This document shows positions 4,371 to 62,690 of a stretch of 64,000 nt of DNA, one piece after another. The notes under the pieces were generated by a model. That model saw nothing but the letters and a program-made list of their open reading frames with translations, made no database searches and had not been told where the DNA came from. The stretch's first letter is position 1. Each line of letters starts with the position of its first letter. The stretch covers positions 470,774 to 534,773 of the forward strand of contig NW_004797388.1 in NCBI RefSeq assembly GCF_000002075.1. The letters run 5' to 3'. This stretch comes from Aplysia californica. Lineage: Eukaryota. A program made the position numbers and the translations under genes.

Positions 4371-5728
4371 GCATAAAGCACGTTTCACTAAACGGCTCTT
4401 ACCGAATGTTTGCTATATAAATTACACGCCTTTAAGCACGTTAACTTCGCCTTCAGGCACGTTTCATTTACAAGACAAGACAGTCAATATTTTCAGGATG
4501 ACCCTTCGAGGTTCGAACACAGTCTACACCGCAACAGTGGATTCGAGTGTGTTAAGAGAAGCACAAAGAACTCAAGAGATGGAGACACACACTCACACGC
4601 GCGGAGAGGAAGACAGAGAGAGGCACACAGACGCCCGTGTGGACATAGAATCTCGCCTAGGGCAAAGCTACACACAGACGAAAAAATACAAAAAGAGTCA
4701 TGGACACGATATTATTTCATGTCATGTTGTAGGCCTGTATCATTCATTGTCCCTGGTAATCTGTGTTTACAAATAAAATCATCATCTACCGTTTATAATA
4801 CATGAACTACACTGAGAAGTCTTTCTTCATGATGATTTCATATTATATTTCTATGATATCCAGCAGCTGGGGCTACCACACTAGCTTCGATGCGGGGAAC
4901 GTTACGAATGTAGTAGCCATCGTTTCTAAATGATAATATAATAATATAGTAGTTCTGCCTGAATTGTGGAAGCTTTCTCAGTTTTTTTGATAAACCTCCT
5001 GGGATTTGACTCTTTTTTTTATGACGTCTTATCCGATCAATATTGGGTAGATCTAACTAGATCTAGATTAGATCTACAATTTTTTCTGACATTGTTTGCG
5101 CAAAAGGAGACTAGACGTAGTCTTGTTCATCTCTCATTCACATTCATTTGAGTTTCGAGTTTGAGCAAGTAAGTCGAAAGACGCTTGGATAATGTTCAAT
5201 AACAAGACGGCAGACGGTGCAACTCGATAATTAGTATTTTCTGTCCACAGTGTCGTCATTAAATAGAGATTCTAGATTTAGCCTACCTAAAAATATCATC
5301 TAGGCCAAGAGAACGTATAAAAGCTGCCTATGTTCGCTAGGCCTAAGTCTAATGTTCAGTGCTTCCAAGCGCGGCATCGAATCCCGGTCCAGGAAGGGTT
5401 TTTTTCCTTCTCCTGAGCCAAAAATTAAAAAAAAATAAAATAATTAGACTCACAGACAAAGGAAAGCCATTATTGAACTTTAATTTAACAAGGCCTAAGT
5501 TGGTAAAAGGAAAAGTAGGCTATAGGCTATACTAAGGCCTACTTTGTACAGGGCTCCTCTTGGGGACAAAGCCAGAATGTGCATGCTTCACCACTACATG
5601 ATAAAAAAAACAACTACAAAGCAACAAGTTATAATTATGGGAAAAATTTGTTGGTCAGTCGAGAAGAGGAAGAAAAAACCCAAAAAACTTGCAGGACCGG
5701 TATCGAACCCAAGCGCTCATAAATATAT

Positions 5729-6669
5729 CGAAGTGACTATTCGGACTCGAGTCCGAATATGAAAAAATGTTATTCGGACTCTGATTCTTGTCCAGCATGA
5801 CATCACTTCCGACTTCCTGTGACTCATGACTCCAGCTTCCTGTCCTGCCTCACTCGTGACTCGCCTCAGGCTGGGAAGAGACCGGGATCACTTTGGGCAA
5901 AATGGCGTTTTGTGCAGGAGCCGAGTCTTTATCTTATGATGAATTTGAGGCCGGCCTGAAAAGTTATAGCGCTTTTAATAAATGTTTATTTGTCAAGAGA
6001 TCATCAGAAGCAATTAAAGATGGCTTGTTAGCGTGTGTTGGGGCCGGATAGGCGGCCTGCACACGTGTGGCTGTGTGCGTGTCGGGGAGGGGGGGTGGGG
6101 GGGCACTATCGGTCCAGGCGTTGAACGTCGCATAACGCGTCAGTCTTTTTCCCCCCGGCAACTGACCATTATTACAATAATAAGCTAGTCTTGACGTAGA
6201 TCTACGCGTGTAACGAATTGTGCGCTGGTCTATGGAATCAAAAGTTGCCGTATGCTCAGCTCTACACAGCAACACAAGTTTTTCTTGGTAAACAATCGAG
6301 ATGACACAGGCTTGTGTATTTGAACGAATCTGTCTTATTTTTTTACACAGCTCATAATATGCACGTGCCATGTGATCTGTTAATCTTCAATTTTACCTTT
6401 TTCTCCAACAAAGAAAGTGAAAAACATGGGGGGTGGGGTATCAATGAGGCGGCGGGCATCGGATCAGCAGAAAAGGTGTGGGGGAAACTAAAAAATGGCG
6501 GAAAATGGGAAGCACTGAACGTTAGATCTTCTATAGAACGAAGACACTTCCTTTTTTGCGGACCCGAGTCCGAATAACATTTTTTCGTATTCGGACTCGA
6601 GTCCGAATAAGATTTTTTTTTATTCGGACTCCGAATATGAAAAAATGGTATTCGGACTCGACGACGGCC
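5729..6669 (+). mobile_element. Non-autonomous Mutator-like element
   Basis: ~44-bp inverted repeats (5738-5781 and 6566-6609) contain the palindrome TATTCGGACTCGAGTCCGAATA. A 9-bp direct repeat TAAATATAT lies at 5720-5728 and 6670-6678. From 5902, MAFCAGAESLSYDEFEAGLKSYSAFNKCLFVKRSS resembles the N-terminal domain of MULE/ZSWIM3-type proteins. Confidence 0.6.
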
Positions 6670-46294: not shown

Positions 46295-46984
46295 TCACTG
46301 AGGACACCCCTTGGGTTTGGGCCCGGTATAAGCTTTGCACACCGGTGTCAAGAGGTCCAAGTTATACGCTACGTGGAAAACTCCGTTGATCACGACCCAA
46401 GGAACCCACAGCACATGCTGGGCTACGGTCCTCTCCGCCATCTGGTGCTCGAGTTGGTTCCCAAGGTCACTGGTCACACACGACGCGATCTCTTCCACGG
46501 GCATATTGTGGAGTTTTCCGCACTTCTCCAGAACCGGTTTCCAATCAGATGATGGGTAGGAAAAGTTTTCCTCAAAGCATTTGATAAACTTGTAGTGGTC
46601 CTCGAACTTTGGCTTGTAGTGGATAGCGCAAGTTTCCACTAGGTTTCCCCAACATTCTCCAGGGCCATGCTGACAAGTGAAGACCCACCTTTTCTTGGAC
46701 TTGTCATAAGATTCTTGAGCGTTGCCGTAAGGAATAAAGTTGAAGTCCATGTAGGTGCCCTTCTCTCCGAGCACGTCAACCGCTTTGGACAGAACGTCTG
46801 TAATGAATTGCTGACAGCCGCCGCACTGGCATTCGTAGTACAGGGTCACGTTCACCGGTGGTGCAGCTTCCAAGATGGCGGCTTCCTTCAGGTCGGCCAC
46901 GGCTGTTTCCTCGTTCTTGCAGAGGGATGCAGCGTCCGCGGCTGTTGCCATGACAACAAGGGCGAGAAGGATCGCGTACTTCAT
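46295..46984 (-). CDS. IFI30: GILT-like lysosomal thiol reductase, copy 1 (229 aa, CDS in one exon)
   Basis: Signal peptide MKYAILLALVVMATAADA, active site YYECQCGGC, PYGNA, the GILT signature CQHGPGECWGNLVETC (CQHGX2ECX2NX4C), VPW, and sequons NVT and NFS. The upstream start given in the ORF track lies in the predicted intron. Confidence 0.95.
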   Translation of the reverse strand: MKYAILLALVVMATAADAASLCKNEETAVADLKEAAILEAAPPVNVTLYYECQCGGCQQFITDVLSKAVDVLGEKGTYMDFNFIPYGNAQESYDKSKKRWVFTCQHGPGECWGNLVETCAIHYKPKFEDHYKFIKCFEENFSYPSSDWKPVLEKCGKLHNMPVEEIASCVTSDLGNQLEHQMAERTVAQHVLWVPWVVINGVFHVAYNLDLLTPVCKAYTGPKPKGCPQ

Positions 46985-46994
46985 ACTTATGGAT

Positions 46995-49900
46995 CTGAAA
47001 TGATTAAACAGAATACAATTCATGTATCATTCAACTCTGTTGAAAATGTAACCTTGACTGCATATATTCATTATACGGCGATAACTACATAATCAATAAC
47101 AAAAACAAATACAGAATCCAAAAGAACGAAGCAAAAACAAACCAAAACTTAAGAAGATTAATTCTACTCTAAGACTTGATACACAACCGGGCTGCGAGGA
47201 GGAGTGGCCCCGGGGGGGGGGGGGATATCCAACTCTCCTCCCCCCACCCCTTCCTTCCTACTCACCCACCCATTCAACTTTTGGCTGAAAATTTGATTAA
47301 CTGCTTTCATAATTATGTTTACATTCTCTTTCTATTGAAAAAGAACATTAACCTTTTCGTATCGTGCGGCTTTCACGGTGGGCATTCCCTAAGAACGCCA
47401 TCATTTTATGTGCGCTATTCCCCGGAAACGCGCAATTTTGGGGTATTTTCAAAGAAATGTATCTCAACGGTTTTTAATCATAGACCTTTGTATTTGGTGT
47501 CAAAGTAAAGTGCAAATCTTTGCCAACACAAACATAGTTTTAGGACCACATTCACTTTCTTTGACAAAAGTTGTCAACTGTACAAAAGAGTGTATGACGT
47601 TGAAGAAATGAAACGTTTTCAAAACAAATTCTACACCCCAATACACACACTAAACAGTTCAACGGTCTTTCTTCAATGATCTTAACGCCTGTTCAGACAG
47701 GCGTGATCCATGATAAATATAATTCAACTAAAATCACTAGAAAATTAAACCGAACGAATGAACATGTGCTGTCCTGAGCAGCTTTCTGAACAGCTCAATA
47801 TACTCAAGCATCGGCTGAGTCAGCCGCTTCTTTCGATTCAGAGTTGAGTTGTGCACCTCAAAGCAGCTAGGGTAGAGTGCAACTTTGCAGCTTGAGCCCT
47901 AGTGCAATGTCACTTTCTTTTGGCATTTTCTGTTCACTTCTGACACCCCAGCTCTGCACGCATTTCCTGTGCACATTTCCTACTGTCGCCTAAAGGTTCT
48001 GTGTCCGTGGTGTTGTTTTCAGCTTACTGACACTCTTTGAGAACATGCCTCTTTCATAGTTAAAAATCCACTACACCTCCCTAGAAAAACGTAATACAAC
48101 TTTTTTTTTTTTGTCAATTTTGTTCAGATGCAGATTTGACACTACGTAGCAATGAAGTAGGATGAAGCAGGAAAGGCAATTTTTATTTTCTACAATAAAT
48201 AATAACTTTGGGGTCTAACAATTACAAAGCACGCATTACGAAAGGAGTGGGAAAAAGAAGAAAAGAAGATACGAAGTATAAGCGAAGGTCTACTTGAGCC
48301 GTTCATTCTGAACTCGTTGATTTCAGATCGCCTCTTTAAATTGGCGTTATTGGTTTCGCGGTTTAACGGATCGCCACTTACGTGGTGTTTTGGGATTACC
48401 GTTTTGTTTTTTTTCAACCCGAAGAGCTACGATTGGTCCTGTTCTTCATTTAATTGCCTATTTTCACCGTTATTGTGATTTTCAGTCCAATTAACACATA
48501 GTTTCAGTTCCCACACAAANNNNNNNNNNNNNNNNNNNNNNNNNNNNNNNNNNNNNNNNNNNNNNNNNNNNNNNNNNNNNNNNNNNNNNNNNNNNNNNNN
48601 NNNNNNNNNNNNNNNNNNNNNNNNNNNNNNNNNNNNNNNNNNNNNNNNAGAACGTTTTCTCGGTAGATTTTCTTTCTTCTCCTTCTGGATTGGACAAGAA
48701 AGTTTTCGTAAGTCATTCGTTTTAGTACACGTACACGTATGTTTCCTTTTGAACTCATTATTTTTAGTTCATGTATGTTTCCTTTTGAACTCATTATTTT
48801 TAGTTCATGTATGTTTCCTTTTGAACTCATTATTTTTAGTTCATGTATGTTTCCTTTTGAAATCATTATTTTTAGTTCATGTATGTTTCCTTTTGAACTC
48901 ATTGTTTTTAGTTCATGTATGTTTCCTTTTGAACTCATTATTTTTCGTTCATGTATGTTTCCTTTTGAACTCATTATAATAGTATGTTTCCTTTTCAAGT
49001 CATTATTTTTAGTGCTTGTATGTTTCGTTTTCAACTCGTTGTTATTAGTACATGTATATTTCCTTTTTTATTCTTTGTTTTAGTACATGTTTTCTTGTGT
49101 GTTTCCTTTTCAATTCATCGAGGGCGCATTTTGGTCATCCGACTAAGCTTGAAGACGTCTTGTTTTTATTTTGTTTTGTTTTGGGGTGTTTTTTGTGCTT
49201 TACTTTGTTTTGTTTTTTGTTTTTTAAAGGGGGCGGCAAAAACAGAGGAAGAACTTCATTAGTCATACAGAAGCCTCCCTGTCGCTCGCTAGAGATCTGA
49301 GTTCGATTCCTGATTGGAGAGAATTTTTATCGAGTTTGACCCTGATAGACAGAGTTAAAGCCCATTTTCTAAACCTTCTAAACCGTATCGATGGGGGGCA
49401 TTAAAAAGCCTACCTAAAAAAAGTTAAGTGAATAATATGGATCTTTCTGCGTGTTGCATTAATATTACAATGATGACCAGCCGAGACATGCCTCGTTTGG
49501 TAGCCTCCATGGGTAGCCTGAGCCGGTTGTTAGAAATGTGTGAAGGCTTAGTATTAGTCTTGGTAAGAGTTTTACAACACTTGTAACACAGACAGATCAA
49601 AATGTTACTACGAGAGATTAAACGTGTGGAATAAGTGCAGGTTAAATCTTTTGTTTGCTTGTTTTAGTAGAGGTTTTACGGCGCTCGCAACTGCATAAGG
49701 TCATATGAGCGCCAGAAGATTAGAGGTGTTACAAGAGAGTAACAAACATAAAACAGAAGGAGGGGAGATAAGGACGATACATGTTTGAAATGAAAGAAGA
49801 AGCAAACCACACCAGAGCACCCGCCAACCGCCCACGTTAATCTTTGTTTTCAAAAGAGTTTTACAGCGCCTTCAATACAAGTACGTCATATAACTGCCGG

Positions 49901-52823: not shown

Positions 52824-54420
52824 TTCACCTTCACCTTCACCTATCCCGTAGACTGGATGTCCGTAGGGACGCTTTTGAAGATTTGGCCACCAGCTTCCTC
52901 CACTCCTTCCGGTCTTTCCTGAGCGTGTCTTTGAGGTCCAGGGCTGTCCATTCCTTGATGTTGTCCTCCCAACACTGCTTCGGTCTGCCTCCGCTTCCTT
53001 TTCCCTGGACGCTGCCTTGCAGGATTATCTTGGCAAAATCCGGATGAACGGTTGATGTGTCCATACCAGTGCAGTTTGCGGTTCCTGACCACAATTAGAA
53101 TTCAGCATATGGTCCAATCGCATTTCTTATCCGTTGTTTGACTTCATCAACGAGATACCAAGGATTTTTCGGAAGTATCTCATCTCAACCACTTTGATCC
53201 TTCTTTCAAGGTCTGCATTCAAGGTCCAGGAATCACATGCATACACAAATATTGACTTGACCCGGGAACGCATCAGTCCGATCTTTGATCTGATGGTGAT
53301 ATTTCTCTCGTTCCTGGTGGTTTTCAACTCGGTTATTGCTGCTGAAGTTTGCGCTATTCTGGATAGTATTTCTGATTTTGATCCTTCGTCTGCCACTACT
53401 GCACCCAGGTATTTGAAGCTGCGTATGGCCTCAGGCCTCTGGTTGTTGACCTGGATGTCCATTGTGATGTTCTTGCTGCTGTTAGACATCAGTTTGGTCT
53501 TCTCAGCGCGATTTCCATGCTGTAGACCTTGGAGGTCTTTTCAAGACGGTCTACTAAGCTGACTAGTTCTTTCTCTATTCCGGGAAGGCCGTCTATGTCG
53601 TCTGCAAAACGGAAGTTAGTAATCGTTCTGCCCTCAATACTGACTGTTCTTTCGTGATCTTCAAGTGCATCTGTCACGCTCCTCTTTGTAACAGTACTTG
53701 GACGATAATATAGTGGTGTAACTATGTTGTGTGCTCGACAAGGGAAACTACTCTCCTGTTCATGCTGGACTAACGCTCTAAAATAAACGAACTCGGTATG
53801 GGTTGTACTGGGCTACGGATCAACATGGTGTGTTGGTTCTGTATCTTGTGTTAATTATATTTAAGATACATGTGGTCAGTCTAGGTTGATACCGACCATC
53901 CACACCTTTACACTCTCCAAGAAAATATTGAAAAGAGAGGATCAGAGCAGACAACCCTGGAGTACTCCCACTGTTGTTCGAAACCATTCCCCAATGCTGT
54001 TGTTGAAAAAGACTGCGCTTGTAGCTTTGTTGCATAGCTTTTCTATGATTTTGATAAGATTGGCGTTGATGTTATATAAGTTCATGGTTGTCCACAAAGC
54101 TTCCAGACATAGTCTGTCAAAAGCTTTATTGAAGTCCACAAATACGTGGCACAGCTCCTGTTGGTGTTGGAGGTACCTTTCCTTGATGATTCTCAGGTTG
54201 AATATTTGTTTAGTTGTGCTGCGCCCTGTCCTGAAGCCTGCCTGTTCTTCTGCTATGATTTTCTCTGCTTGTGGCTTCACTCTGTTGAGAATGACATTAC
54301 GCATTACTTTACCAGGATGGCCAATCAGGCAAATAGATTTCAAATCTGGAGGAGAGGTATCAAGACCAATGGGACACCACCACATTGAAGCATTTAAAGA
54401 GACTGTTCAAACAAAACGCA
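52824..54420 (-). mobile_element. RTE-clade LINE (reverse transcriptase pseudogene)
   Basis: EEQAGFRTGRST, FVDFNKAFD, GVLQGCLL, NFRFADDI, FKYLGAV, KLHWYGHI and GGRPKQCWEDNI motifs, with a (GAAGGT)n tail. Interrupted at about 53678-53908. Confidence 0.92.
53687..53825 (+). mobile_element. Possible short LTR inserted into the RTE
   Basis: TGTAACAG...GATCAACA with AATAAA at 53782, immediately followed by TGG (PBS-like). It lies within the interruption of the RT frame. Confidence 0.35.
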
Positions 54421-56609: not shown

Positions 56610-57030
56610 GAGGGGGCTCTCGTGGTCTAGAGTACGTGTTGACTCTCATTCTCATTCAATAGGTTCCGTGTTCAAAATCTGACATCGGCAGAAAATATTT
56701 TTCTTCTAAATTTTCTCCTTTTCTCCTTTTCGTGCTCTTGAGCCATGTTCTGTCGTCTGCTTTCGTCCCCACTTTCTGCCCCCCCCCCTCTTTCTACTTC
56801 TACTCCTTGGCTCCTTTTAGCCTCACCACTGATCTTAAGGTAGGTATGGTCGAACACCTAACCTTCTCGGATAAGGGCAAAAAATCTCGGAGATCCCATG
56901 TGCAAGTTGCGCACGTTAATAATCCTTTGGCCGTCCTAAAATCGATAAGAATAAGCTTCGTCCACAACCCGGGAAAAATTTAAATTACATGTAAATCCTA
57001 CTAAACTGATAATGCTTGATGTCTTCCGGG
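56610..57030 (+). mobile_element. tRNA-derived SINE with Deu/Nin-like domain (partial relative at about 33600-33780)
   Basis: tRNA-like head. The core CTCGGAG(A/G)TCCC(A/G)TG.GCAAG.TG.GCACGTTAA..ATCC.T.G...CTAAAATCGATAAGA is shared with 33633-33700. Confidence 0.5.
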
Positions 57031-58259
57031 CGTTCGTAGGACCGTATGCAGTTGCGAGACCCGAAAAATGCTTACAAAAAAGTTATTAACGCGCCTGCAT
57101 CAATAATTGATAGGGTGAATGACTTACAAACAGCTTCAAAATCCGGTCTCTCGGTGCGAGTACGTGTCCAACGCCGGTGGACAGCCTGGGGGAGGTAGAA
57201 TAGGCGATAAAAGCTAGGGGGAAAAAACCCTCAAGAATCAAATAACCGAATACTACCAAATAGAATTGTTGTTCAATTTCTCTTATCGTTTCACCTCTTG
57301 TGTTAAAATGATAATCACTGTATCTACTTACTGACATTCTGACAGCCAATGATTGTCTGATACAAATAAAAGGTCAGTCACATGGCACCCGACAAAAACG
57401 GACACAGACAAAAGTACAAAATTAAACAAAAACAAAACATTATCGACCAACTCACATGTGACGGACTTAACTTTTTTTTTTAGCCCACAACAAGAAATAT
57501 TAGTATGCACATTATGACCCTCCACACTATTGTTATGAAGGCAATGTAAATGAAACATTTGAAATCAATTTCATGAGCTAACGATAATTACCCCCCTCCC
57601 CCAATCCTCCACACAAACCCCAACAAAAATAAACAAATAAATAAATAATAAGTACATGAAATATAATAAATAAATTAAACAACATAAATATAATAGATAA
57701 ACTTAAAGACAAAATTACATAAGTAAATAAATAAATAGATAAACAAATAAATAAATAAATAACAAAAATGATACAAACCTGGACGCCAAGTTTCAAATAT
57801 GAGTGAACAGGCAATAGAGAGTTCTGTAAGGTTAAAGACTTGGGTTTTTTAAGATAATTTAGAGTCGATAGTTGTTGCATATCACGTCAAGTTTTGCTCT
57901 AAATCTATAGATAAGTGGCCTCATTTCAAATCAATACATGCATAATGAAATTCACACTATTTTTTAAACAGCATAGCCCATAGTTTGATTCAAGTTTTAC
58001 CCGACTATAAACAAAAGATCCCACCAGTTTGTCTGTTTCCCAGCTTTATCAGCTGCTTGCACAGTATGCTTCCCAAAGTTTCTNNNNNNNNNNNNNNNNN
58101 NNNNNNNNNNNNNNNNNNNNNNNNNNNNNNNNNNNNNNNNNNNNNNNNNNNNNNNNNNNNNNNNNNNNNNNNNNNNNNNNNNNNNNNNNNNNNNNNNNNN
58201 NNNNNNNNNNNNNNNNNNNNNNNNNNNNNNNNNNNNNNNNNNNNNNNNNNNNNNNNNNN

Positions 58260-58816
58260 CCTCAGATAGTCACCCATCATCGTCTTCCCTGTCCACTCTG
58301 TGATGTTGTTCTCCTATCTCCTTCTCTTCCTTCCACTCTTTCTCTTCCTTGTACGGTTCCTTGTAGGATTGTTTTGGCAATTCCTGTGAACTTTGTGATG
58401 TGCCTATACCATTTTAATTTTCGTTTCTTTACTGTGGTCAGATCTTCATGCTGCTCCACTGTATTTGTGATTCTGTTCCGTACCTCAGCATTTGAAATGT
58501 GTTCTTTGTATGAGATGTCAAGGAGTCTGCGGTAACATTTCATCTCAGTTGTCAGAATCCTTTTCTCCAATTCTGCTGTCAATGTCCACGACTCACAGGC
58601 GTATAAAATATTGAGATGACCGGGTGAGCGCATCAGTCTGATCCTCGAGTTGAGCATGATGTTTCTGTTCTTTCTAATAGCCTTCAGTTTTGACAGCGCA
58701 GCAGCCAACTGCATGGAGATCAGTGCCAAGAAAACAAGCTAATGACCAGTTACACCAATGGCATCAACGCGAACATCAAAGTCAGTGGCGAGAAACTTGA
58801 GACCGTTAACAGCTTC
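58260..58816 (-). mobile_element. RTE LINE 3' fragment with an inverted 5' segment
   Basis: The minus strand at 58260-58700 reads LYACESWTL..EMKCYRRLL..KLKWY. The plus strand at 58713-58816 reads MEISAKKT/LMT..KVSGEKLETVNSF. Confidence 0.8.
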
Positions 58817-59609
58817 TGAGGTCTGTTTGGGTAATAATATAGATTTTAAAGCGCTTAGTGCGTTCTGTTGAGAAGGAAAAAAGCGCTATTATTATAGAAA
58901 TGAAAGGTACAAGAGAAAAATGAGATGTCACTTTTTTGATAAAGTGAGTAATGTTGTGGGTTGGAAAGTATTTATGCGCTTCTTCTGGCCCATCTCAGTG
59001 TCCAGGGCTAAAAACTGAGGAGTCGCCCAACATCAGGCTTGGAATATAAGCTATAGCTTTACTATGGAAAAACGTGGGGTTTCAGGCATTTCATTTTTAT
59101 TTTTTTTATCAAAATGTCAAAAAGTGAGATCCCATGTTTTTCATNNNNNNNNNNNNNNNNNNNNNNNNNNNNNNNNNNNNNNNNNNNNNNNNNNNNNNNN
59201 NNNNNNNNNNNNNNNNNNNNNNNNNNNNNNNNNNNNNNNNNNNNNNNNNNNNNNNNNNNNNNNNNNNNNNNNNNNNNNNNNNNNNNNNNNNNNNNNNNNN
59301 NNNNNNNNNNNNNNNNNNNNNNNNNNNNNNNNNNNNNNNNNNNNNNNNNNNNNNNNNNNNNNNNNNNNNNNNNNNNNNCCTATTATTGTTTTTATTATTA
59401 TTATTACTATCATTATTATTATCTTTTTTATTGTTATTACCAGCAGTGTTTTCACACACGGAGAATGCAACTACTATTGTCCACCTAAGGTTTTTTTTGT
59501 TTTGTTATGTTTTTGGTGTTGTTGTTTTTTGGACACGATCTATCAGTCACATGTGCGTAAGTGCAAAAGATAAACGAAAGTGGCCTGCCTACACCTTGTC
59601 ATTGTCGCC

Positions 59610-59749
59610 TCGTGCCTGCGTGGGTCGTAGGGTGATAATAAACTAAAGACACACATAGTATTTAAATGCTACTCCACAATTCCTCGTCACTTCATTTTGA
59701 ACCAAGCTTTGAGACAGACCAGCAGCAGCACGAGCAGGGCTTCTACACT
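59610..59749 (+). promoter_or_regulatory. Core promoter and non-coding exon 1 of GILT copy 2
   Basis: TGATAA at 59633 and TATTTAAA at 59659-59666, 30 nt before the A of TCACTT (59689). Exon about 59689-59749, then GTGAGT. Confidence 0.7.
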
Positions 59750-61644
59750 GTGAGTATCCTTACCGTAACAAGAAAACTCAAACACGCTGAAACATCTATC
59801 GTCCTCAGATTATTTTCGCCTCCTACTTCTTTAATGTGTATGTTACTCCCTGGGAACACCTCTAATCCCGGGCACTTGTATGGCTTACTTGTGCTGCAGG
59901 TGCTGTAAAACTCCTATGAAAACAAAGATTTAACCTGCACTTATTTCACACGTTTGATCTCCTGTAGTTATTTTTTTTATCTGTTTGTGTTGCAAGTGCA
60001 GTAGAGCTCTTACCAAGATTTTAAAAAACTACGCTTTCACATTGTTCGCACTGTCGGGCTCAGGTTACTAATGACTAGTCTACCAAAGGAGCCGTGTCTC
60101 TGCTGGCCAATATTGTAGCTTTATTATAATGCAACAGGTAGAAAGATCCATATTATTCACTGAAGTTTCGTTAAGAAGATTTTTTACGTCCCCTATTGAT
60201 TTAATTTAGATTTAGAAGACGGGCTTCAACCCTGCCTGTCAGGGTCGATCTAGACCGAGAGGAATACATCATCCAAGCAAGATGACCGAGATACTCGATA
60301 AAAACTCTCTCCAATCGGGAATCAAACTCAGGTCTCTAGCATGCGAAAGTGAAGCGCACAGCCACTATGCCACAGACGCCAGAAGGGCATACGTGAACAG
60401 TAGAGGACGTTCTGAATCTCCTCGAGATGAAGGTTGATGTCGAAGTCGATACGTTAACTCTTTTACATCGCAGCGGACGCATAATAATATTATTGTTTCT
60501 TATCAGCTGAAGACCAAAGGCAATATGCTGCAGCACTGTTGGTACAATCATACACAGAATAACAATACATGAATAAGAACACGAATATGTTTACTTCATT
60601 ACAATGTTCTGCATTTATTGTTGTCTGTCTTTATGAGTTTCAGAAAAAGAACGCAAAATTGAAGCATCTGTATGAATAATTAAGTAATGCTACAATCGTT
60701 TAATCCACCAGAAAAAACAAACAATCAAAACAGAACCCACCACAAAAAAACAAACAAACAAATAAACCAATAACAACAAAACAACCACAATAATCAAAAA
60801 CAAAAACATAACAAAACAGGACATCTTCAAGCGTTGTCGAATAACCACAACGCGTACCTCGATGAGTTGAAAAGGAAACACAACATGTACTTTAAAAAAA
60901 TAAGTTACGAAAACTCTCCTCACCAATCCAGAAGGAGAAAAAAGAAAACTATTGAGAAAACGTTCAAGTGACTCCCGAGTCGAAGTATAGGTATTTTAAC
61001 TTATACTTTATCCTGTCTAACATTGGTTGATTTATTTTTGGGCACTCAACTTAAACTGGTAACCCCCCTCCCCCCCAAAAAAAATTAAATTTAAAAAAAA
61101 TATATATAATATAAATAAAAAGGCAGCCCTTTTTATTGAGTATAAGATTTCGTCTTTTGAGGCTAAATAGCCTAAAAAGTAGGACATGCTATAAAAATAA
61201 TGCTTTGGCGCTTCAATTAGGGTTCAAAACACCAACATAAAAAAGGATAATTGGCTTTTTTTAAATAAAAAAAAGACCTTGTAGCGGGGTTTTTTCCTAT
61301 TCTTTGGGGGAGGGGCGGGGGGTGATAACGTTTATGCCTCTGTTTATGAGTGGCCCCGGTAACATTCAAACATTTTTACCCAAGAAAGATTATAGTAAAT
61401 TCAACTCGACAGCAAAGAAATTGATCCGCCGACACACTCCTCGAGTTTCTGTTGTTACCAGGACATTCTTAAATTTTGTGTTTTCTTCGTTTTTTCCAGT
61501 TTTGTTTGTTTGTTTTTTGTTTTTGTTTTCATCTATAAATTATGTAGTCATTGCCTTGTAATCAATGATTGAACATCTGAAAACGGTCAAGATCAGATTT
61601 TCCACAGAGTTGGATAACACATATATTCTGTTTTATCATTTCAG
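59750..61644 (+). other. Predicted 5'-UTR intron of GILT copy 2
   Basis: GTGAGT donor at 59750. Acceptor TTCTGTTTTATCATTTCAG ends at 61644, 10 nt before the ATG. Confidence 0.7.
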
Positions 61645-61654
61645 TTCCATAAGT

Positions 61655-62344
61655 ATGAAGTACACGATTCTTCTCGCCCTTGTTGCCATGGCAACAGCCG
61701 CGGACGCTGCATCCCTCTGCAAGAATGAGGATACAGCCGTGGCCGACCTGACGGAAGCCGCCATCTTGGAAACTGCGCCACCGGTGAACGTGACCCTGTA
61801 CTACGAATGCCAGTGCGGCGGCTGTCAGCAATTCATTACAGACGTTCTGTCCAAAGCGGTTGACGTGCTCGGAGAGAAGGGCACCTACATGGACTTCAAC
61901 TTTGTTCCTTACGGCAACGCTCAAGAATCTTATGACAAGTCCAAGAAAAGGTGGGTCTTCACTTGTCAGCATGGCCCTGGAGAATGTTGGGGAAACCTAG
62001 TGGAAACTTGCGCGATCCACTACAAGCCAAAGTTCGAGGATCACTACAAGTTCATTCACTGCTTTGAGGAAAACTTTTCCTACCCATCATCTGATTGGAA
62101 ACCGGTTCTGGAGAAGTGCGGAAAACTCCACAATATGCCCGTGGAAGAGATCGGGTCGTGTGTGACCAGTGACATTGGGAACCAACTCGAGCACCAGATG
62201 GCGGAGAGGACCGTAGCCCACCATGTGCAGTGGGTTCCTTGGGTTATCATCAACGGAGTCTTCTACAAGGATGCTGCCGATGACCTCTTGACTGCGGTGT
62301 GCAAAGCTTACACCGGGCCCAAACCCAAGGGGTGTCCACAGTGA
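61655..62344 (+). CDS. IFI30: GILT-like lysosomal thiol reductase, copy 2 (229 aa, CDS in one exon)
   Basis: Same motifs as copy 1 and 210/229 aa identical. The ORF is intact with a signal peptide. Candidate AATAAA at 62726. Confidence 0.95.
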   Translation: MKYTILLALVAMATAADAASLCKNEDTAVADLTEAAILETAPPVNVTLYYECQCGGCQQFITDVLSKAVDVLGEKGTYMDFNFVPYGNAQESYDKSKKRWVFTCQHGPGECWGNLVETCAIHYKPKFEDHYKFIHCFEENFSYPSSDWKPVLEKCGKLHNMPVEEIGSCVTSDIGNQLEHQMAERTVAHHVQWVPWVIINGVFYKDAADDLLTAVCKAYTGPKPKGCPQ

Positions 62345-62359
62345 GCTTTGACTTGTGGT

Positions 62360-62690
62360 TTATGACGTCGTTGGTTTAGTAGTTAGGCTGTTTGACTCGA
62401 AATCGCAAGGTAGTGGGTTTGAGTCCCATCAGCAACCCGACGTTGTGTCCATGGGAAAGACACTGTACACAAAATTTCCTCACTTCACCCAGGTGGGAAT
62501 GGGTACCCGGCTATTGACAGCGAAAGATCATGTCAGTTTGTTAGTGTTAGTGTTTGAGCGCTAAATCAGGAAGCCAACAAATTTTCGGAATAATTTAGGG
62601 TCTGCTGGGGTATTAATAATAATATAGACAGTAAAGCGCATAGACTTTGCCGTTGAGCTTTGGTATGCGCTAGACAAATGTCATTTATTA
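62360..62690 (+). mobile_element. tRNA-derived SINE in the GILT-2 3' UTR (only its head survives in copy 1, about 46220-46280)
   Basis: Collinear with 27137-27490. Core GTTGTGTCCATGGGAAAGACAC..CACCCAGGTGGGAATGGGTACC. Confidence 0.7.

Follow-up and report, generated by a model that had tools for sequence, protein, structure and literature searches.

Two head-to-head GILT genes of Aplysia californica, nearly identical outside an 18-nucleotide block at a predicted groove-lining loop

The window, a 64,000-nucleotide stretch of the Aplysia californica genome, carries two genes of the GILT family in head-to-head arrangement, here termed copy A and copy B (Table 1). Each has 229 codons with zero indels between them, and they differ at 40 nucleotides and at 19/229 amino acids (92% identical). 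A and B score 99.0 and 99.5 bits against the Pfam GILT profile (PF03227), for which the curated cut-off is 22.4, and in the window both contain the GILT signature CQHGX2ECX2NX4C, as given in PMC8631631, at residues 104-119. The predicted models of the two proteins have a mean pLDDT of 91, and that of A aligns with mouse GILT (6NWX) over 181 residues with an rmsd of 1.7 (Z 25.1, Foldseek E 5e-16). Both models start with a hydrophobic helix (residues 4-15), a possible signal peptide, and sequons for possible N-glycosylation can be read in the sequence at N45 and N140. A and B share the CXXC motif, signature, conserved cysteines and fold (Z 25.1) of GILT/IFI30, but depart from the usual member of this family in having an intron-free coding region and an extra cysteine, Cys52, and copy A in addition has a hydrophobic L3 loop. 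The view of an earlier note on this DNA, that these are GILTs with a conserved catalytic core, is supported by the Pfam match, by the identical CXXC and signature in A and B and by Pro195, which is invariant in 106/106 rows of our family alignment.

Five GILT loci were found in a search of the A. californica assembly: A, B, a third intron-free copy (paralogue C, 58% identical; protein P0002, assigned to Aplysia californica by its source) and two copies with introns. This equals the number of GILT genes given for the species in PMC9334734, where an antiviral role is supposed by analogy. The two intron-containing genes (L011-L013, G000:C617) lie in opposite orientation and have the active sites CPDC and CPFC and the cis-Pro loops HQYVPW and HTGVPW, respectively; the final exons of the second could not be located and probably fall within a stretch of N. 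In a quick tree built from the first 60 of the 106 alignment rows, A, B and C group with one fragment and two Elysia proteins, although the support (SH-aLRT 89) is not firm. Short L2 and L3 loops, unlike those of the usual GILT, are common to this sea-slug group and are also found in further sea-slug proteins. The coding introns were probably lost by retroposition in an old ancestor, and a pyrimidine tract with CAG, common to A, B and C, points to a likely splice acceptor before the ATG. In both A (46831-46814) and B (61808-61825) the active site reads C-Q-C-G-G-C, the extra cysteine standing two places ahead of the catalytic one; such a residue occurs in 4/274 motifs, two of which are A and B themselves. 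A further cysteine is present in the pro-region of both copies, at residue 22.

Table 1. Features of the GILT gene pair, in window coordinates
Feature	Position	Strand	Counterpart	Basis and remarks
GILT copy A, intron-free coding region, 229 aa	46295..46984	-		ORF; Pfam PF03227 E 2.4e-28; mouse GILT 6NWX Z 25.1
GILT copy B, intron-free coding region, 229 aa, head-to-head with A	61655..62344	+		ORF; PF03227 E 1.7e-28
Likely splice acceptor, 11 nt upstream of the B ATG	AG 61643-61644	+		Pyrimidine tract and CAG common to A, B and C
Active-site CGGC, residues 54-57, same in A and B, extra Cys52 before	61814..61825 (B)	+	46825-46814 (A, -)	Sequence
Pro195, inferred cis-proline, same codon in A and B	62237..62239 (B)	+	46402-46400 (A, -)	Invariant in alignment
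Divergent block of A, codons 204-209, HVAYNL, predicted loop L3	46358..46375	-		Sequence; run contigs
Divergent block of B, codons 204-209, YKDAAD, predicted loop L3	62264..62281	+		Sequence; run contigs
Codons 213-214, differing between A and the window's B, A-like on B-type contigs elsewhere	62291..62296	+		Contigs; difference counts
Likely conversion tract, codons 42-119	61778..62011	+	46861-46628 (A)	One difference in 234 nt, none silent
Core of inverted duplication	61466..62402	+	47155-46237	Alignment, 88% over 942 columns
Upstream arm of inverted duplication	56611..60965		52478-48650	Blocks in the same order in both arms, 71-86% alike; some of them may be dispersed repeats

The differences between the two copies are concentrated in a single block, codons 204-209, in which 13/18 nucleotides and 6/6 amino acids are changed without an indel. 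No 18-nt window reached 13 differences in 20,000 permutations (p=5e-5, the permutation floor), and the replacement of all six amino acids is similarly improbable (p=6e-5, permutation). The edges of the block are sharp, and the 5/18 nucleotides that match between A and B within it are about the random level. According to the earlier note, a patch spanning residues 189-214 set the two proteins apart. Its counts (10/19 amino-acid differences within these residues, HVAYNL against YKDAAD, 13/18 nucleotides, no indel) are all reproduced here for the window, but only the block itself is beyond chance. Once codons 204-209 are taken out the residual amino-acid differences are unclustered (4/13 in residues 189-214, p=0.52), so that the divergent feature is six codons rather than a 26-residue patch; nucleotide differences outside the block are at most weakly clustered (p=0.34 in 30-nt windows and p=0.08 in 60-nt windows).

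Eight of 24 public runs were compared with the window, all as contigs, from which rare variants drop out. Three of the runs (X1, X4 and X7) are samples from the same study, X11 and X13 belong to two further studies, and no study is given for X8 or X12. Contigs bridge the A-type block in five runs (X1, X8, X4, X7 and X12) and the B-type block also in five (X1, X11, X8, X4 and X7), four of which (X1, X8, X4 and X7) bridge both forms; an A-type contig of X11 and a B-type contig of X13 span the block with fewer than 31 nt on one side. In the comparison over 61660-62420, X12 yielded one contig, of A type only. Run X20, from another organism (share 0.21), contributed one 215-nt piece equal to A at a depth of 3.6, which does not extend to the block and was set aside. 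The contigs of the eight runs, which drop rare variants, gave no third form of the block and no variation inside either form, and lend no support to the diversifying innate-immune system that had been suggested for the pair.

Outside the block the window's copy B is unusual. Every contig of X4, X7 and X13 carries the A-type letter at 62174, 62293 and 62294, and in X1, X11 and X8 the numbers of differences (18 and 28, against 20 and 30 expected from the window's B) imply that 62293-62294 are A-type there too. The window's copy of B thus stands apart in having I174 and A214, through a private allele or an error, and the number of fixed amino-acid differences in residues 189-214 is therefore nine, not ten. 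B-type contigs also carry F50 in X1, X7 and X13 (61803, where the window's B has Tyr50 as in A) and H114 in X1, X7, X8 and X13 (61994, where the window's B has the signature residue Asn114, as in A). The asparagine that has become histidine in these contigs occupies a nearly invariant position of the signature. B in other runs is thus of A type at codons 174 and 213-214 and of non-A type at 50 and 114, and the window's B is the reverse. In X11, X8 and X4 a single type was seen mid-gene; since contigs drop variants, this is not counted here as conversion.

The models place the block in a DsbA-like fold (Z 16.7 with Staphylococcus aureus DsbA; Z 12.9 with Escherichia coli DsbA, residues 20-188 of which align with residues 44-221 of the model). 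The cis geometry of Pro195 is inferred from this fold. The earlier note had located the divergent patch around the cis-Pro loop, L2, but V194-P195-W196 is unchanged between A and B, and only Q/H189 and L/Q192 among the differences fall within L2. In both models Pro195 is followed by strands 196-199 and 202-203, a short helix (205-208) and the last helix (from 211/212 to 218). The block, which occupies positions +9 to +14 from Pro195, lies past the beta-hairpin, between the last strand and the final helix, and its register relative to DsbA makes it loop L3, which shares the binding face with L2. Its short helix is the same in both models (pLDDT 97-98).

Loops L1 and L2 (the cis-Pro loop), together with the beginning of helix 1 and L3-H7, are described as making up the binding face of DsbA (PMC3828196). 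In the structures treated in PMC9305425, ligand contacts are made by Q160, L161 and P163 of E. coli DsbA (cis-Pro151; offsets +9, +10 and +12) and by V159, G161 and Q162 of Vibrio cholerae DsbA (cis-Pro149; offsets +10, +12 and +13). If the hairpins are taken to be of equal length, a register count maps the contact offsets of +9 to +13 onto residues 204, 205, 207 and 208 of the GILTs, and the block is accordingly predicted to line the substrate groove. The suggestion that the divergent residues face the substrate thus survives, since the binding face is probably the same one, although the loop is not the one that had been named. The cis-Pro loop is a conserved holder of the substrate cysteine (PMC13269488), and DsbA-type oxidoreductases and the A/B pair have in common, besides the fold, a constant cis-Pro loop and a variable L3 that, on the DsbA side, shapes the groove. 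By analogy with DsbA, L3 may set substrate choice in GILT, although DsbA is a bacterial periplasmic oxidase with 10-18% identity to these proteins.

Comparison across the family was made on an alignment of 106 rows, comprising copy A and 105 of 162 proteins after exclusion of tandem-domain, over-long, duplicate and most partial sequences. Entropy in the block columns is 2.99, higher than the 2.28 averaged over the core, but this places the block only 28th among 179 windows. The Pro-to-Cys span ranges from 20 to 29 residues. One hand-chosen pair of close relatives from each of seven clusters gave nine L3 differences where 2.7 were expected, an approximately three-fold excess (p=0.002); without the lamprey pair a hand count gives five against 1.9. 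L3 thus tolerates change, which counts against a reading by selection. The possibility that the patch is equally variable in all GILTs, raised beforehand, holds in part: L3 is a fast loop generally (9 against 2.7), but A and B, with 6/14 of their core differences within 6/185 positions, are more extreme than the other close pairs. The loop of A ranks first of 106 GILTs in hydropathy and is among the 5/106 that lack an acidic residue, whereas that of B is acidic and typical of the family (hydropathy rank 62/106). Two Lampetra planeri records (P0182 and P0185) show no difference over 198 residues, as far as the NG motif, but 12 differences in the final 32 residues, a stretch that includes L3 and the last helix. 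This divergence begins at the site of an exon boundary in the Aplysia intron-containing gene, and the lamprey pair may reflect exon duplication, conversion of a paralogue or a chimeric gene model.

A and B belong to an inverted duplication that extends several kilobases upstream of the genes. In their nearest flanks the two copies differ at 44/226 sites (~20%), whereas silent sites outside the block differ at 12/152 (8%; p=0.002 against the flanks) and those of codons 42-119 at 0/53 (p=8e-5). The longest run of identity between A and B is not significant by itself (p=0.09). Silent divergence below that of the flanks, together with A-type states that vary in B between animals, suggests gene conversion, which is likely to lie behind the near-identity of A and B outside the block and which had been missed in the first reading of the sequence. 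Constraint on silent sites could mimic this effect. We found no orthologue of A or B in another sea-hare species, and a search for short fragments of relatives also returned none. Silent divergence is raised on both sides of the block, at 2.5 of 9.7 sites in codons 189-203 and at 3 of 15.3 in codons 210-229, although one of the three changes in the latter interval is the codon-213 change peculiar to the window.

A narrow peak of divergence under conversion has been described as a signature of selection (PMC3924837, PMC2588116), with the caution that conversion patterns can be mistaken for positive selection (PMC3924837). The cases treated there, exon 5 of the red/green opsins and Drosophila CG18281/CG17637, likewise concern close duplicates of low divergence with a narrow fixed island, but the island in A and B differs from these in being only 18 nt long and saturated.

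Divergence in the block exceeds even that of the flanks (13/18 against 44/226, p=6e-6), and for this reason the block is not merely an unconverted relic; when point change was simulated at 20-28%, at least 13 differences were reached in 1e-5 to 1e-4 of trials. Within the block pN is 0.83 and pS is 0.38 on 4.2 silent sites, and the ratio of nonsynonymous to silent changes (~11:2) is that given by random replacement (p=0.39; contrast between inside and outside, p=0.08). Since the block is saturated, dN/dS cannot separate stepwise selection from a single complex mutation. Support for the positive selection proposed in the earlier note thus comes only from the excess over flank divergence.

Several local origins were considered and rejected. 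In-place inversion of the block gave p=0.011 with a hand-picked boundary, but 0.18 and 0.37 in a fair scan of boundaries; a compensated frameshift, suggested by read-aligner gaps, fitted no better than shuffled sequence (p=0.89); and the best match to a local forward duplication was 11/18. No local template for the block was found on either strand within 300 nt (p 0.24-1.0). Template switching and microinversions are known as short-range events (PMC5453318, PMC7954356), and the cases described there resemble the block in their dense neighbouring changes but differ in that the reverse-complement template is absent here.

A donor for the block was sought in the assembly without success. Neither block is matched exactly outside its own gene, and the hits with one or two mismatches (seven for A and 18 for B, against 12 for the control, A being the lower) fall on contigs that have no GILT match. 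Neither block is matched by paralogue C or by the readable intron-containing exon, the best match anywhere in nine loci being 11-13/18. The run contigs nevertheless contain a fourth GILT-like sequence, ~85% alike to A and B in parts and closer to them than C, which is present in 6/8 runs (X1, X4, X7, X8, X11 and X13; along 46456-46630 and 61740-62211) and has 0 matches in the assembly. It reads G-D-H-M-W-V-P-W-V ahead of the hairpin, agrees with B and not A at codons 197-198 and is unlike both at 194-195. Branch lengths in the quick tree of 60/106 rows are 0.072 for A and 0.019 for B. Polarity drawn from paralogue C was discarded as register-dependent (A 3 and B 7 of 21 nt in one register, A 11 and B 10 in another). 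In X1 and X4 the depth of A- and B-type contigs is ~2.6-3 times that of the fourth paralogue, and in X7 the ratio is higher still, a possible hint of extra copies that have been collapsed, although contig depth is not copy number. In X13, the kind of which is guessed, B-type contigs have depths of ~5,200-5,750 and an A-type 3' piece a depth of 11, and depth cannot rank the genes.

GILT is a lysosomal enzyme that reduces disulfides. By the mechanism of the family, Cys54 would attack the substrate disulfide and Cys57 would resolve the mixed disulfide within an acidic compartment; the substrate cysteine would be held by the cis-Pro loop, beside which L3 would shape the groove. The reading that we prefer, and to which we give an even chance, is that A and B are two intact GILTs kept alike by conversion save for a selected 18-nt island at a groove-lining loop. 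Inverted duplication would have produced two intact genes, gene conversion would keep them alike outside the island, and selection would keep the L3 island different, conferring another substrate preference on copy A, which appears to be the more derived copy. Both proteins would work in the manner of GILT, with attack by Cys54, resolution by Cys57 and L3 shaping the groove beside the cis-Pro loop. Stepwise selected change fits the raised silent divergence next to the block, the longer branch of A and the outlier chemistry of its loop; the block has also not changed in length, in a segment that ranges from 20 to 29 residues among GILTs, and this too fits stepwise substitution. Against selection count the random proportion of nonsynonymous to silent changes and the same predicted backbone in both models.

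These last features would be expected if the block had arisen instead by a single complex mutation in a tolerant loop, for example the loss of a stretch and its refilling with 18 new bases, or error-prone synthesis in a short burst, which was nearly neutral and whose mismatch now blocks conversion. The sharp edges, the nearly random 5/18 matches, the absence of clustering besides the block, the random N:S (p=0.39) and the unchanged predicted backbone of a loop that evolves fast and differs in length among GILTs all agree with such an event. Chance would, however, have to supply the exact length and an open frame, no local template was found within 300 nt, inversion and frameshift fail their controls, and silent divergence is raised on both sides as around an old island (one change being confined to the window); we consider this origin possible, with a chance clearly below even. 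It is unlikely that the block was copied into A or B from a further paralogue by micro-conversion, as the earlier note had offered as an alternative to selection. The fourth paralogue, found in contigs of 6/8 runs and absent from the assembly, and the L3 exon of one intron-containing copy, which probably lies inside the N stretch, leave room for a donor, but the assembly holds none, C and the readable intron-containing exon match neither block, and the fourth paralogue is B-like at 197-198 and unlike both copies at 194-195.

It is less likely still that copy A is decaying under relaxed constraint and is made to look intact by conversion from B. The longer branch of A and the loss from its loop of the acidic chemistry of the family are in keeping with decay, but relaxed constraint would yield at most the flank level of ~20%, as against 72% in the 18 nt, and every A-type piece listed around the block has the open frame seen in the window. 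An artefact of sequencing or assembly, named beforehand as a possible undoing of the patch, has practically no chance of being the explanation. At 62174, 62293 and 62294 the window's B carries letters that are unseen in other runs, but both forms of the block occur letter for letter in several independent runs from at least two named studies, by which an artefact is refuted for the block.

The GILT family and the pattern of a divergence island under conversion are both already known, and the pair described here would be a very small example of the latter. A search that left subscription journals mostly outside its scope, and in which a blank is accordingly weak, found no study mapping GILT substrate preference to a loop or comparing these copies. 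A and B offer a cheap test of GILT specificity, as two natural enzymes that share their catalytic core but have opposite chemistry in a single predicted groove loop. A bolder form of the preferred reading, which we put forward tentatively and think more probably wrong than right, is that L3 is the substrate-choice module of GILT, that the hydrophobic groove of A, without parallel among the other sampled GILTs, is a product of selection and is defended against conversion, and that the same module diversifies independently in lamprey. If L3 is such a module, the A/B pair would be a natural loop-swap experiment on GILT substrate choice; if swapped loops alter nothing, the block would represent ordinary tolerated mutation in a variable loop.

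No tRNA was found in the 64,000-nt window. Upstream of A lies a tandem repeat of ~36 nt (48730-49118) with open frames on both strands, one of which was scanned and gave no Pfam hit. The interval between A and B also contains a reverse-transcriptase fragment (PF00078), together with similar-looking open reading frames that have no Pfam hit (53127-54385 and 58277-58714).
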